A DNA stretch of 32,300 bases, taken from NCBI GenBank assembly GCA_047617785.1, contig JBLGBK010000009.1, forward strand, positions 1-32,300. Direction: 5' to 3'. The notes under the pieces are model-generated. The model saw only the letters and a program-made list of their open reading frames with translations, had not been told where the DNA came from and made no database searches. Positions 11,924 to 23,213 of the stretch are shown piece after piece (the stretch's first letter is position 1; every line of letters begins with the position of its first letter). This stretch comes from Colwellia polaris (GTDB taxonomy: Archaea; Nanohalarchaeota; Nanosalinia; Nanosalinales; Nanosalinaceae). The translations under genes were made by a program, and so were the position numbers.

Positions 11924-12427
11924 TTACTCGAAGGAGAGTTCGTATTCTTCGCCGGTTATTTCCTCTACAACGTGTTCGAATTCTTCGTTGCTCATGTTGA
12001 TCTTTCCTTCGTATTCCTCATCTACAACGATTTTCTTGCTCTGTCCATCAGGCTTGAAAACTGTGTTGATTGATTGGATCTCTGCTGGACTGAGTAGCCC
12101 TTGAATAACTTCTCTGTTGTCTTCTGATTTCTCAACAATTCTGATTGACTTGTCGACTTGGCTTGCGATCTCTTTGACGATTTCTCCGCCCTTTCCTACG
12201 ACTTTAGCTCCGTCGCCTTGTGCTGTGACGATTACTATAACGTTTTCTGTATCGATTGCTTTGATGATCTCGCTGTCTCGAAGCGATCCATAGTCGTTGC
12301 TGAGATCGTGTAGAATTCTTGAGATTTTTATGTCGAGTTCTGTTATCTCGTCGTTATCGAGCTTCTCCTGACATCCACTGCACAGGACGTCGCTCTTTAG
12401 ACATACGTTACATATTGGTGCCTTCAT
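11924..12427 (-). CDS. Archaeal NusA-like KH-domain protein with an N-terminal Cys4 zinc motif
   Basis: PICNVCLKSDVLCSGC plus the KH GxxG loop VVGKGGEIVKEIA...KSIRIVE. Confidence 0.85.
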   Translation of the reverse strand: MKAPICNVCLKSDVLCSGCQEKLDNDEITELDIKISRILHDLSNDYGSLRDSEIIKAIDTENVIVIVTAQGDGAKVVGKGGEIVKEIASQVDKSIRIVEKSEDNREVIQGLLSPAEIQSINTVFKPDGQSKKIVVDEEYEGKINMSNEEFEHVVEEITGEEYELSFE

Positions 12428-12489: not shown

Positions 12490-12999
12490 CTAGAATTGTT
12501 TCTTTAGATCTGTTGCTTTGATTATTAGTTCGGCTTCCTGGTAAACTGCTACTATCACTATCAGTAGCACTCCCCAGAATCCGAAATGAGGGTTGAGACC
12601 TGAGATAAGCAGGGTTATAGAAGCTATAAGACCTAATTCTACGCTTTCAAAACTCAGCTTGTACGTTTTGTTTAGCTGATTCCTAATCCCTAGTTTAGTT
12701 AGTAGGAGCAAGCTGAATGAGAACAAGCTGATAACGCTTAGGTATAGAGGTACTGTTGGTATTGTGGCTGCGGTAGCTACAAGTCCGAGAAAAAGGATGT
12801 TCTCTTGCAGTATAAGTGATACTTTGGTATATCGGTCACGTCCCTGCTTATTTGCGATCGATAGTGTTTTTCTGTATATTACTATGGCTGAGATAGCAGT
12901 GATTCCTGCAGCAGTTAGATTTACAGTTGAAAGTACAACCGTGCTTATGAATGCAAGAAAGGTCGTGATGTATAAACCAGTAAATCTGTTTCCAGCCAT
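12490..12999 (-). CDS. Hypothetical integral membrane protein (~5 TM helices)
   Basis: 169 aa, predominantly hydrophobic, with no confident family motif. Confidence 0.65.
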   Translation of the reverse strand: MAGNRFTGLYITTFLAFISTVVLSTVNLTAAGITAISAIVIYRKTLSIANKQGRDRYTKVSLILQENILFLGLVATAATIPTVPLYLSVISLFSFSLLLLTKLGIRNQLNKTYKLSFESVELGLIASITLLISGLNPHFGFWGVLLIVIVAVYQEAELIIKATDLKKQF

Positions 13000-13105
13000 T
13001 AAGTTATTACTTACAAGTTAAACCTAATAACGCTTACCATAGAGAGTCTTGTCCGAGAACTTGGCCAGAGTGTAAATGTTAGTTAAAGAAAATAGGAAAA
13101 ATTCT

Positions 13106-13206
13106 CCAGGCAGAAAGGTGACAGAGCCCTCGCTCTGTTCGAAAGGGGGGGAGGGGAGTTTTCGATTTAGCAAGAGTTTGAGAGCTCTGCCATCCTTTCC
13201 ACCTGG
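13106..13206 (-). ncRNA. Putative rod-shaped structured RNA immediately 3' of ftsZ
   Basis: 26-bp stem with four G·U pairs and one bulged A that forms fully only on the minus strand. Inner UCGAAA/UUUCGA stem with a C-rich loop. Followed by U-rich tracts. Confidence 0.65.
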
Positions 13207-13226
13207 TAGCATAAATTACTAGGTGC

Positions 13227-14294
13227 TTATTCTAGCACCTCTAAACCTAAGTCGTTTACGTTGCCGGAAACCTCTGTTTCTTCCTGATCTTCGATATCGC
13301 CCAGTACGTATGGGCTTTCTACTCCGGTAACGATTGATATAACCTGTAGCTTACCTTTCAGCTCTTCCTTGATTCGTGCACCCCAGATAACCTGTGCGGA
13401 AGTGTCAAGCTTGCCTTTTACTCTTTGACCTACATCGTTGATTTCATTTAGTGTCAGGTCTTGTCCGCCTGCTACGTGCAGGAGTGCTCCGTTTGCTCCG
13501 TCGAACTCTACGTCGAGGAGTGGGTTGGATAGTGCTTCATGGATCGCTTCTTCTCCTTTGTTGTTTGTATCTGATTCTCCGTATCCTACTACTGCGACTC
13601 CTCCTTCGTTCATGATTGCTTGGACGTCTGCGTAGTCAAGGTTGACTAGTGAAGGCTTGCTGATGGTTTCTGTGATTCCTTTGATCATTGTGGTGATAAG
13701 TTCGTCCGCTACTCCGAATGCCTGATCGAGGGGCATGTCGCCTGCGATGTCAAGTAGCTTGTCGTTTTCGATCACGATTGCTGTGTCTACGTGTTGTCTT
13801 AGTTTGTATAGGCCTTCTTCTGCTTTGCTCATTCGTGCGCCTTCGATTTCGAAAGGCATTGTTACTGTTCCAATCACGATGCAGCCTTCTTTCTTTGCAA
13901 TCTCTGCTAGGACTGGTGATACTCCTGTTCCTGTTCCTCCTCCAAGTCCTGCGGTGAGGAATACCATGTCTGCGTCTTTGAACAGGTTACGTAGTTCTGC
14001 ACGGTTTTCTTCTGCTGCTCGTGCTCCTTTTTCTGGGTGTCCTCCTGCTCCAAGTCCTTTTGTTAGGTCTCGGCCGACCAGTATTTTACGGTCTGCGGAA
14101 GACATCTGAAGGTGCTGCTTGTCCGTATTAATTGCGACAGTTTCAGCTCCTTCTACTTCTTTATTTTGGATTCGGGTGACCTGGTTGTTTCCAGCTCCTC
14201 CGGCTCCTACTACTATGATTTTAGCATCTTTTACGTCTTCGAGGTTCTGTGTTTCAGCTCCCTCGTTGCCAGCGTTGTCAATTATGGATTCCAT
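13227..14294 (-). CDS. ftsZ: Cell division protein FtsZ
   Basis: [13 protein letters not shown], tubulin signature [15 protein letters not shown] and VIWGA. The likely start is ATG 14294 (MESIID...). Confidence 0.97.
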
Positions 14295-14374
14295 TGGGTG
14301 TATCAGCCTGCGGTGTAGTTGCACCTAACCTTTTTAAGTCGGTATAGGTAATTCTACCTTAGAACAAAGTCAAA

Positions 14375-14520
14375 CGTCTTTTGCCCAAAAGACGAATAAT
14401 TCGATACTTGATTTCGAGTTTGCCCAAACTCGATTTGCCCGATTGACCTTGAATCGAACTCGTGCCCGCGAGTCGAAAGGTCGTGAACTTCGAATCATGT
14501 GCCCGCATGATCTAAAGTTC
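14375..14520. ncRNA. Array of stem-loops sharing a TGCCC(A/G) loop (putative ncRNA or ftsZ leader)
   Basis: Hairpins at 14375-14394, 14414-14433, 14458-14473 and 14494-14511 have different stem sequences but the same GCCC loop. A fifth TGCCCG occurs at 14436-14441. Confidence 0.7.
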
Positions 14521-14582
14521 GGACGAATCTTCTATACTAACTTATTCTCGAAAGCTGTTTATAAATGTTTGCACGGTAGGGT

Positions 14583-14601
14583 GACTGTTCACGACTGTTC
14601 A
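14583..14601. promoter_or_regulatory. Tandem GACTGTTCA direct repeat (10-bp period) near a TTTATAAA box
   Basis: GACTGTTCA at 14583-14591 and 14593-14601. Palindromic TTTATAAA at 14558-14565 in the divergent ftsZ/gatC region. Confidence 0.3.
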
Positions 14602-14686
14602 TTGCACTACAATACAATTGTCTCAAGAGCTCGACCATCTTCAAAGGTTAGTTGTATAAAGAATTTCCTTCTCAAACATGTTTGTA

Positions 14687-14965
14687 ATGGTAGATGCTGA
14701 AGACGTAAAAGACGTGGCAGAGAACGCCAGAATCAACCTGGAAGACGACGAAGCCGAAGAATTCGCAGAAGAATTCGAAGACATACTCGACATGTTCGAA
14801 ACACTTGATGACGTCGATACAGAGGACGTAGAACCATCATTTCATCCTATAGAAGTATCACCTCAAACTAGGAAAGATGAGGTAGAGGAAACACTAGATG
14901 AAGACGAAGTGTTCCAGAACACCGATAACGAAGAAGACGGAATGTTCAAAGGACCTTCAGCCTAA
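14687..14965 (+). CDS. gatC: Asp/Glu-tRNA amidotransferase subunit C
   Basis: EDVKDVAENARINL...LDDVDTEDVEP...RKDEV...EDGMFKGP is the GatC pattern. Lies upstream of gatA and gatB. Confidence 0.92.
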   Translation: MVDAEDVKDVAENARINLEDDEAEEFAEEFEDILDMFETLDDVDTEDVEPSFHPIEVSPQTRKDEVEETLDEDEVFQNTDNEEDGMFKGPSA

Positions 14966-15000: not shown

Positions 15001-15501
15001 ATGAAGCTGGGAATAGTATCAGATACACATGATAACCTGGAAAAAGCCAGAGCAGCAGTCAAATTCTTCAACTCAGAAAATATAGGTAACGTCATTCACT
15101 GCGGAGATATTGTCTCACCTTTTACCGCAGGAATCTTCGATTCGAACTTTGATTTCCACTACGTAAGAGGAAACAACGATGGCGAATGGAACCTCAAACA
15201 GGTAATACAGGAGTTCGGAAACTTCTATAACAATATCGCAGAACTGCAGATCGACGGTAAAAACTTTGCAGTATACCATGGTACAGAAGGGGAAATAGTC
15301 CAAGCGCTAGTTGAATCAGGAAACTATGACTACGTTCTCAGAGGACATACACACAAGAGAAAACATGAAGAACACGAAAATACTGTAGAGATAAACCCTG
15401 GCGGCATCCAGCTACCTGATCAGGATGAACAGTTCTCTGTAGCAATACTTGACACAGATACAGGAGAGGTAAACTTCCACAATTACAGCCAGATAAAATA
15501 G
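15001..15501 (+). CDS. YfcE/MJ0936-family metallophosphoesterase
   Basis: SDTHDN, HCGD, VRGNND, YHG, GHTH and INPG motifs. Confidence 0.92.
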   Translation: MKLGIVSDTHDNLEKARAAVKFFNSENIGNVIHCGDIVSPFTAGIFDSNFDFHYVRGNNDGEWNLKQVIQEFGNFYNNIAELQIDGKNFAVYHGTEGEIVQALVESGNYDYVLRGHTHKRKHEEHENTVEINPGGIQLPDQDEQFSVAILDTDTGEVNFHNYSQIK

Positions 15502-18357: not shown

Positions 18358-19257
18358 ATGAAAGCAGACACCTATCTGGACGAAAAAGATTTCAACTACA
18401 CCGAGGTTGTTCAAGACAAGCCAACAAAGAGCTGTGACGATGCAGCAAAGGAACGCGGCCTAGAAACACGTCAGATAGTCAAATCACTCATAATAGAATC
18501 CGACGAGCAGAAATACCATATCCTTCTTCCTGGTGATAGAACCCTTTCTGAAAGCAAGTTCGGCGCTGAGTACCGAATGGTGCCCCCGGAAGACTCCAAG
18601 GAACTCACAGGATTTGAATCAGGAACAGTACACCCATTCTCCACAGAACTGAAACATGTAGTTGATGAAAGAATATTCGAGAACCAAGAAGTATCGCATA
18701 CAGTTGGAGAAACTCAGCGAGGCCTTATAATCGATGCTGACAATTTTAGGGAAGCGCTAGATGAGGCTAATTTCTCATTTGAGGTACGTGATATCGCTGT
18801 CTCTACAGAAAATGACTACGAAGAACTGGAGAAGAAAGGTTTAGATGAGAAACAGGCCAAGTTCGTAGTAGAGAAAGGTAACAGGAAGGCATACTTGGAT
18901 TTGGAAACTGATTACTCCAATTCAGATATTATTACGCTCTTCAAGGGGGTTGGAAGACATGAAATGGAAGTAGATACACAGTTAGCTGATAAGATACTTG
19001 ACCGAGCTGAGAACCAGACACATATACAGAGACTTGTAGAATCTTACTCAGAGGACGGAGAACTGCCTGATCAGAAGGATTTTGATATAGAAGAACAGGT
19101 CGAAGAAGTGATTGAAGATAATCCTGATGCAGTTGAAGATTACCGAAGTGGTCAGGACTCGGCTGTCAACTACTTGATTGGACAGCTTATGCAGCAGACC
19201 AACGGCCGTGCGGACGCCGGTAAGGCACAAGAACTTGTGCTGGAGGAACTTGAATGA
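18358..19257 (+). CDS. YbaK/ProX-type aminoacyl-tRNA deacylase domain fused to a GatB-like C-terminal (Yqey) domain
   Basis: N-terminus has QIVKSL (conserved Lys), LPGD and TGFESGTVHPF (GxxxP loop). C-terminus DNPDAVEDYRSG...AVNYLIGQLMQQTNGRAD matches the adjacent GatB tail. Confidence 0.85.
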   Translation: MKADTYLDEKDFNYTEVVQDKPTKSCDDAAKERGLETRQIVKSLIIESDEQKYHILLPGDRTLSESKFGAEYRMVPPEDSKELTGFESGTVHPFSTELKHVVDERIFENQEVSHTVGETQRGLIIDADNFREALDEANFSFEVRDIAVSTENDYEELEKKGLDEKQAKFVVEKGNRKAYLDLETDYSNSDIITLFKGVGRHEMEVDTQLADKILDRAENQTHIQRLVESYSEDGELPDQKDFDIEEQVEEVIEDNPDAVEDYRSGQDSAVNYLIGQLMQQTNGRADAGKAQELVLEELE

Positions 19258-23138: not shown

Positions 23139-23213
23139 CGAGCTCGCAGGGATTTGAACCCTGGACCTAGCGGTCCGAAGCCGCTCGCTCTGTCCAAGCT
23201 GAGCTACGAGCCC
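23139..23213 (-). tRNA. tRNA-Arg(UCG), intronless, CCA not encoded
   Basis: Cloverleaf: acceptor GGGCTCG/CGAGCTC, D-arm GCTC/GAGC, anticodon arm AGCGG-CT-TCG-GA-CCGCT, T-loop GGTTCAAATCC. TATTTAA box upstream on the minus strand. Confidence 0.95.

Follow-up and report, generated by a model that had tools for sequence, protein, structure and literature searches.

An array of hairpins with one shared loop between ftsZ and gatC of Nanohaloarchaeota as a candidate multivalent regulatory RNA

We analysed the divergent gap between ftsZ and gatC in a window of 32,300 nt, contig C9 of the nanohaloarchaeal genome G000 (787,359 bases in 22 contigs, 96.55% complete); all coordinates refer to this window. 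The gap holds an array of hairpins with unrelated stems and one common loop; of five families sampled from the phylum, four carry such arrays upstream of their ftsZ orthologue, always as a single locus. The array is a structured element without a described family, and its structure is under selection. We give about an even chance to the proposal that the gap encodes a multivalent structured RNA, either a small RNA (sRNA) or a long ftsZ leader. The array in the window is built as follows:

14375-14394: hairpin 1, CGTCTTTT-GCCC-AAAAGACG, 8-bp stem, with compensated stems in orthologues
14414-14433: hairpin 2, TCGAGTTT-GCCC-AAACTCGA, 8-bp stem, matched by the covariance model
14436-14441: unpaired motif copy TGCCCG
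14445-14482: hairpin 3 as a whole, with outer stem GACCTT (14445-14450) pairing with AAGGTC (14477-14482)
14458-14473: inner stem of hairpin 3, ACTCGT-GCCC-GCGAGT, 6 bp
14485-14520: hairpin 4 as a whole, with outer stem GAACTT (14485-14490) pairing with AAGTTC (14515-14520)
14494-14511: inner stem of hairpin 4, ATCATGT-GCCC-GCATGAT, 7 bp (inverted repeat I3)

A preliminary description of this stretch had listed four hairpins with a GCCC loop, and reading the sequence located all four where it had placed them, with loops starting at 14383, 14422, 14464 and 14501 and hence spaced by 39, 42 and 37 nt, as it had said. The outer stems it had drawn for hairpins 3 and 4 (including the GACCTT/AAGGTC pairing), the fifth TGCCCG at 14436 and the TATA-like boxes on either side (TTTTTAAG at 14331-14338 and TTTATAAA at 14558-14565) are likewise present. 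Two of its statements had to be narrowed. The GCCC loop is invariant within the window; what stays constant among relatives is the hexaloop GCCCAA, and in hairpins 1 and 2 of the window the AA of this hexaloop pairs with an additional TT, so that a GCCC loop remains. Similarly, the closing pair alternating between U-A and U-G is a feature of the window's genus and does not extend beyond it.

Within G000, the array stands alone. Perfect hairpins that combine a 4-nt loop with a stem of 6 bp or more number 259 in the genome. If stems may include G-U pairs and be as short as 5 bp, a GCCC or GGGC loop is found on 16 hairpins, four of which fall into this 140-nt stretch; no second cluster of them was found in the whole genome. 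With four of the 16 gathered here and no other cluster, the hairpin cluster is real and far from a chance assembly. The more general motif [GT]CCC[AG][AC] occurs 937 times in G000, yet only 12 copies are flanked by a stem of at least five Watson-Crick pairs, and four of these 12 belong to the array. The genome scan for further hairpins of this loop that had been proposed at the outset thus left the array as the sole cluster, and a scan of the window against Rfam 15 agreed with the initial impression that no known RNA family is involved: at gathering thresholds nothing was matched in the gap, and the sole match in the window was a tRNA at 23139-23213. Neither did the literature searched contain a description of the hairpin array.

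Several known elements were considered and set aside. A permissive Rfam scan of 14200-14750 returned a chance-level SAM-II match inside ftsZ (14.9 bits versus 44). The signal recognition particle RNA of the genome is encoded elsewhere (C5:33053-33325, 132.7 bits), as is a candidate RNase P RNA (C2:8965-9353), whose 63.5 bits lie below the Rfam gathering cut-off of 84 and mark this RNA as divergent in the lineage. A replication origin does not fit, as the sole Cdc6_C match of G000 is on contig C14, and the skew in the window tracks gene strand without a skew turn. A tandem repeat of the kind found in type III toxin-antitoxin RNAs or CRISPR-like loci was rejected as well: Tandem Repeats Finder (TRF) called no array over the hairpins, whose stems are unrelated.

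The array is a property of the phylum rather than of the window. Our sample comprised all 70 nanohaloarchaeal genomes in the collection, from five families; 32 loci were searched and the anchor described below was placed in 31, on which most locus counts rest. BLASTN with the gap as query matched 18 of 41 relatives (G000 included) and 39 of 50 genomes of the family, and between genera only about the first 41 nt of the query (14325-14365) aligned, at 80-100% identity. This alignable part consists of TATA box 1 and the block GGTATAGGTAATTCTACCTTAGAAC; little more is aligned between genera because the layout is common and the stems differ. In relatives, ftsZ, which points away, comes first; then come the anchor, at most three unpaired GCCCAA copies and three to six GCCCAA-loop hairpins, followed by the block CTAACATTT, then TTTATAAATGTT, TGTTCA boxes and gatC. 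The conserved unit is a stem of 5-9 bp closed by the hexaloop GCCCAA (UUGGGC on the other strand), to which the unpaired motif copies are added; hairpin 3 of the window is the orthologue of the best-conserved hairpin, AACTCG-YGCCCAAR-CGAGTT.

Motif and model searches agree on a single site. The unit covariance model R1 found this locus alone in G000 (two matches at E<=10) and, at E<=0.01, one place each in 29 of the 70 genomes, the exception being G049 with matches on two contigs. The pattern GCCCAA-N10-40-GCCCAA-N10-40-GCCCAA matched 33 of the 70 genomes, with one place per genome among the matches listed, versus three matches in two genomes for the reversed control. Genomes missed by both queries still carry the array when the region upstream of their orthologous ftsZ is inspected. 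In families f3 and f4 (two of two inspected in each), hairpins with GCCCA or GCCCG loops stand upstream of ftsZ and are followed by a TATA box, TTTATAAA or, in G031, TATATAAA; a gatC-like coding sequence comes after the array in three of these four loci and not in G027. The one genome inspected from family f5 has hairpins with a CGCCAA loop upstream of ftsZ. The loop conservation that had been anticipated in relatives was therefore found across the phylum, and with one locus per genome the array is not a dispersed REP-like repeat. An exact 18-mer from the anchor occurs in 24 records of a species-representative collection, 11 archaeal (eight Nanohaloarchaea or Nanohalarchaeota metagenome-assembled genomes and three labelled 'uncultured archaeon') and 13 bacterial, the latter being about the chance expectation for an 18-mer; the archaeal records agree with the nanohaloarchaeal affiliation that the preliminary description had presumed. 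The two array loci of the G049 bin, on contigs C12 and C63, could reflect strain mixture or duplication.

The stems are maintained by compensatory change. From a gapless seed of 21 of 50 units, the covariance model collected 56 units in 32 loci, of which 55 lie in the same sense within delimited cores and the 56th in L032, a locus without a delimited core. In this alignment, 88.5% of cells are paired as compared to 58.2% in shuffles, cells changed on both sides number 117 as compared to 41 (neither value reached in any of 500 shuffles), and sliding one partner by 1-3 columns lets pairing fall to 22-38%. The alignment was fitted to the model, and two independent counts agree with it. First, 110 hairpins (87 unique) from the 31 loci contain 665 Watson-Crick, 24 G-T and 34 A-C pairs. 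Second, 81 of 120 motif copies inside the cores have a stem of at least five Watson-Crick pairs, as against one of 32 outside, that is, elsewhere in the same loci or on the other strand. MAFFT with RNAalifold on whole cores misaligned the stems and recovered one hairpin only. Covariation hence backs the earlier suggestion that selection acts on structure and that the array is not the product of recent duplication.

While the stems vary, the loops change in concert. Among 148 motif copies in the 31 loci, GCCCAA accounts for 104. In genus g19, by comparison, every copy is TCCCAA, TCCCAC or another TCCC form (5/5 in L017, 5/5 in L029 and 6/6 in L035); the loops of L033 from genus g2 are T-type in three of three copies, and so are most or all copies in L134-L137, which come from three g2 genomes and one g13 genome (5/5, 4/5, 5/5 and 3/3 intergenic copies). 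T-type loops thus occur in three genera and G-type loops elsewhere, apart from the CGCCAA of f5. Since the hairpin stems are unrelated, simple gene conversion of whole units is impossible as a means of homogenisation. A loop letter that is uniform per genome and switches in all copies argues for co-evolution with a single reader, and it is mainly for this reason that we retain a multivalent partner as the best explanation; of the multivalent binding proposed in the preliminary description, it is the idea of a single multivalent reader that gains support from the joint switching.

The proposed RNA would be about 175 nt long and carry three to six hairpins whose stems are free to vary. Every hairpin would present the same loop, YGCCCAAR on the plus strand or a UUGGGC hexaloop on the minus strand, with up to three unpaired copies added, and the copies would be interchangeable sites at which a single trans-acting factor docks, in all likelihood a protein that binds RNA. 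As a stand-alone sRNA it might titrate this factor by a CsrB-like logic; as a long 5' leader of ftsZ it might let the factor set FtsZ synthesis. Transcription would start from one or both of two inward promoters, from TATA box 1 to about 14361 on the plus strand and from TATA box 2 to about 14535 on the minus strand, and operator-like conserved DNA motifs flank both. The elements at issue are these:

14331-14338: TATA box 1, TTTTTAAG, whose plus-strand reading matches the G000 promoter consensus TTTWWA; invariant in the 31-locus alignment
14339-14365: anchor block TCGGTATAGGTAATTCTACCTTAGAAC, highly conserved, with a T-A initiator-like step at 14360/14361 and the CGGTATAG motif
14532-14545: conserved block CTATACTAAC... 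(CTAACATTT in relatives), at constant distance to TATA box 2
14558-14565: TATA box 2, palindromic TTTATAAA, 181-245 nt from the anchor and unaltered in 30 of the 31 loci
14583-14601: tandem GACTGTTCAC, 1.9 copies by TRF (ACTGTTCA boxes with a 10-bp period), outside the hairpin array

A promoter consensus derived from 80 leaderless-type upstream regions of G000 places TTTWWA 30 nt before a mostly leaderless ATG, with A-rich positions at offsets 18-23 and T-A at offsets 29/30; most genes of this genome look leaderless because TTTWWA starts at this distance from the ATG. Measured against this consensus, two promoter-like elements face each other across the array. Inward from TATA box 1 on the plus strand, T-A stands at offset 29/30 (14360/14361 in the window) in 29 of 31 loci, and inward from TATA box 2 on the minus strand (14536/14535) in 28 of 31, where it is preceded by a conserved A-rich promoter-proximal AAATGTTAG block. 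The outward, plus-strand reading of TATA box 2 has this step in eight of 31 loci. TATA box 1, which in most relatives reads TTTTTAAA and fits the consensus in both directions, has no T-A initiator toward ftsZ in any of the 31 loci; the ATG of ftsZ lies 33-53 nt from it on that side and is preceded by a semi-conserved GGNTGATAC. The block at 14532-14545 aligns without indels, save that L033 and the window's genus (L001-L003) have 2 nt inserted. This inward geometry fits a plus-strand sRNA, a minus-strand RNA (maybe an ftsZ leader of about 240 nt) or both.

The same geometry also suits a cis-antisense pair. Under this rival explanation, both strands are transcribed convergently, each folds, and the GCCCAA and UUGGGC loops kiss as in plasmid copy control, which would couple transcription or translation toward ftsZ with that toward gatC. 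The stems are nearly pure Watson-Crick and their rare wobbles symmetric, as if both strands fold. UUGG, an instance of the YUNR motif of kissing loops, is what 116 of 148 copies show on the minus strand, and a passage of one paper calls the YUNR U-turn ubiquitous in the recognition loops of loop-loop antisense systems (PMC4485353). The CGCCAA loop of f5 reads UUGGCG on the other strand. The title of Asano et al. 1998 names this hexamer, as a 5'-rUUGGCG-3' loop. However, complementarity between the strands of one locus is automatic and leaves both the loop identity per genome and the joint switching unexplained, and 23 of 148 copies (the CCCG type) have no U-turn motif. We therefore regard such a pair as unlikely, if worth keeping in mind.

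For the multivalent RNA itself, we lean toward the minus strand, that is, toward ftsZ, with the plus strand somewhat less probable and the use of both strands well behind either. The closing pairs favour a minus-strand hexaloop, closed by U-G in most genera (in the plus sense, C-G 13, U-A 7, U-G 7, A-U 3 and unpaired 21, mostly C-A), the window's genus being more uniform in the plus sense. In 30 of 31 loci, the minus strand reaches the lower minimum free energy (mean difference -6.9 kcal/mol), an advantage owed to its G/U-rich composition. For the whole gap of the window, the z-scores are -2.85 (plus) and -3.06 (minus).

A number of observations weigh against the multivalent RNA or against any one orientation of it. 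The strand tests conflict: dinucleotide-shuffle z-scores are better on the plus strand in 27 of 31 loci (means -4.4 plus and -3.0 minus), and the stem wobbles, 24 of plus type (G-T) and 34 of minus type (A-C), are near symmetric. Near-equal signals on the two strands are what one would see if the element were a palindrome acting as DNA or a system that uses both strands. T-runs beyond the array, in whichever direction, are no longer than four in the 31 loci. As the anchor block hardly varies at all, its T-A step cannot count as separate evidence for a start site. On the side of the partner, a search of G000 for the RNA recognition motif (RRM_1) gave none and one for CsrA (PF02599) gave zero matches, with the latter control positive in E. 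coli, B. subtilis and T. maritima. A NusA-like KH-domain protein encoded nearby was considered as a partner and dropped, since its synteny with the array is confined to family f1. There, the gene lies within about 2.5 kb of the array on the same contig in 17 of the genomes with both positions listed, the exceptions being G001 (C55 versus C13) and G022 (C63 versus C32), in which gene and array are on separate contigs; outside f1, it is unlinked or about 5 kb away, though f3 and f4 have the array. What the sequences show is the anatomy, the conservation at a single locus across the phylum, the covarying stems, the concerted loops and the promoter-like geometry; that the element is an RNA, on which strand, with what kind of partner and to what regulatory effect is inferred.

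The symmetric wobble statistics also suit a DNA-level element, in which the inverted repeats and their GCCCAA centres would act within the divergent upstream region of ftsZ and gatC, either as protein sites or as small cruciforms or hairpins extruded by the negative supercoiling that divergent transcription produces. The array sits between two TATA boxes, beside evident operators (the CGGTATAG copies and the TGTTCA boxes), and each of the two genes, ftsZ and gatC, has a TATA-like box close to it. On the other hand, the stems have no half-site in common, and a dimer reading duplex DNA cannot explain their arbitrary complementarity. Loops are spaced by 8-59 nt over the 31 loci with helical phasing absent, which argues against a phased array of duplex sites, and unpaired motif copies occur too. 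For a cruciform to be extruded, moreover, stems of 5-9 bp are short. Taken together, we consider action at the DNA level improbable.

Operators may nonetheless contribute next to an RNA. The CGGTATAG motif (CGGTRTAG) is found on both sides of TATA box 1 (14311-14318 and 14340-14348) and recurs inverted at 14532-14538, close to TATA box 2 (I1, an inverted repeat with 75% over 20 nt); so placed, it may serve the two promoters as a common operator. The anchor block probably functions as a promoter core, as an operator or in both roles, and the conserved blocks beside the TATA boxes may be operators instead of, or as well as, promoter parts. Downstream of TATA box 2, the direct repeat at 14583-14601, ACTGTTCA-CG-ACTGTTCA (10-bp period), is conserved across genera, and many relatives have TGTTCA-N7-TGAACA palindromes added downstream of TTTATAAA; with its half-site conserved, this ACTGTTCA/TGTTCA repeat, which lies between TATA box 2 and gatC, probably serves as an operator for a transcription factor.

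C-rich loops can serve as seeds against G-rich targets, as in RsaE/RoxS-like regulation. By this logic, the array might be a plus-strand base-pairing sRNA directed at G-rich targets or at the anticodon loop of tRNA-Pro(UGG), whose UUUGGG at positions 32-37 could pair with the CCCAAA found in the commonest loop form. A CCC core is present in the loops and in the single-stranded copies, all five genes read, which come from four genera, have TT[TGG]GA as the anticodon loop, and the downstream gatCAB operon ends with a YbaK/ProX-type tRNA-editing domain fused to YqeY. Yet TTGGGC (8 copies) and TTGGG (34 copies) are spread over positions -60 to +60 of 867 open reading frame (ORF) starts in G000 without enrichment at the start codon, position 38 of tRNA-Pro(UGG) is an A whether the genus has G-type or T-type loops and does not covary with the first base of the loop, and any CCC loop trivially contains a proline codon. 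We judge a base-pairing RNA of this kind very improbable. A T-box-like tRNA-sensing leader was rejected in the same comparison, the tRNA-Pro(UGG) loop being the same in genera of either loop type.

Regarding this tRNA, ARAGORN listed 26 tRNA genes in G000 (32 with introns allowed) and did not find tRNA-Pro(UGG). The complete relatives G008, G012, G019 and G054 have tRNA-Pro genes for both GGG and UGG, and from G020 only the UGG gene was read; the gene of G000 is probably in an assembly gap.

Coming back to the multivalent RNA, its most far-reaching form would be the first phylum-wide regulatory RNA of DPANN archaea: a hairpin-array leader of ftsZ, or an adjacent sRNA, through which one dedicated loop-reading protein sets the synthesis of the division protein in these host-dependent archaea, the reader and the loops having co-evolved into three alloforms (GCCCAA, TCCCAA/C and CGCCAA). 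We advance this version tentatively, as possible and rather doubtful. A search for sequencing runs listed 24, all of them DNA-type metagenomes. In print, passages of one study describe a conserved 266-nt intergenic sRNA of a nanohaloarchaeon, STRG.4577.1 (PMC7002113, its Fig. S6A and Data Set S1), which may have a bearing on whether the array is expressed, and passages of another, in which a consortium containing Ca. Nanohalococcus occultus was studied by directional RNA-seq (PMC11001535), are silent on the locus.

The genes on either side of the gap, and the promoter element closest to gatC, are as follows:

13227-14294, minus strand: ftsZ, with Tubulin and FtsZ_C domains and a conserved start ATGGAATCC at 14294
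14651-14660, plus strand: proximal TATA-like box of gatC, about 32 nt before the start; relatives have TTTAAAGA or TTACAAAAAG at the same distance
14686, plus strand: start of gatC, ATGGTAGAT, conserved

On its 3' side, gatC is followed by genes for a YfcE-type phosphoesterase, gatA and gatB, in this order. The YfcE-family metallophosphoesterase gene (15001-15501, plus strand) is inserted between gatC and gatA, and the last gene of the gatC-yfcE-gatA-gatB string (18358-19257, plus strand) joins a YbaK/ProX-type editing domain (PF04073) to a GatB/YqeY tRNA-binding domain; judging by its domains, this fusion would be an unusual trans-editing protein that accompanies the amidotransferase. Just downstream of ftsZ lie two small ORFs on the minus strand (12490-12999 and 13024-13212) that match no Pfam family, the 169-residue one with a weak, sub-threshold SecE-like stretch, and after them the NusA-like KH-domain gene (11924-12427).

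Almost nothing is known about gene regulation and non-coding RNA in Nanohaloarchaeota and other DPANN archaea with their small, compact genomes. An element of about 175 nt that has been kept beside ftsZ in four of five sampled families, with covarying stems and a concerted loop, must matter to these organisms. Its identical loops, the natural 'allele swaps' between lineages and the two candidate promoters offer a defined entry point for work, which might uncover the control of division, or of the tRNA-amidation operon next to it, in these symbionts, and could show whether archaea use multivalent decoy or platform RNAs as bacteria do.

Among known systems, REP and BIME elements (repetitive extragenic palindromic sequences and bacterial interspersed mosaic elements) are likewise made of small intergenic hairpins; they come, however, in many dispersed copies with conserved stems, whereas the array is one locus per genome with varying stems and a conserved loop. 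Closer in its loop is the nucleolin recognition element of eukaryotic pre-rRNA, a hairpin loop (U/G)CCCG(A/G) read by a tandem-RRM protein. The array loop (G/U)CCC(A/G)(A/C) is nearly the same and is likewise presented by short hairpins in several copies, although RRM_1 was not found in G000. The bacterial CsrB/RsmZ sRNAs resemble the array in architecture, with unrelated stems, one short loop motif and extra single-stranded copies, and by analogy also in the logic we propose, many equal sites for one reader. The array is no member of that family: its loops are GCCC(AA)/GGGC or UUGGGC in place of GGA (A/UCANGGANGU/A), a difference already remarked on in the preliminary description, CsrA was not found in G000, and the element is archaeal and fixed between ftsZ and gatC. 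With the kissing-loop antisense RNAs (Inc RNA of ColIb-P9, CopA/CopT of R1), it shares a YUNR hexaloop, mostly UUGGGC and in f5 UUGGCG, as well as promoter-like elements on both strands; those RNAs serve plasmid copy control with one or two recognition loops, whereas the array is chromosomal and has three to eight identical motifs. Regulatory RNAs with a repeated loop are a familiar kind, and the array has a fair chance of being something newer than that among archaea.

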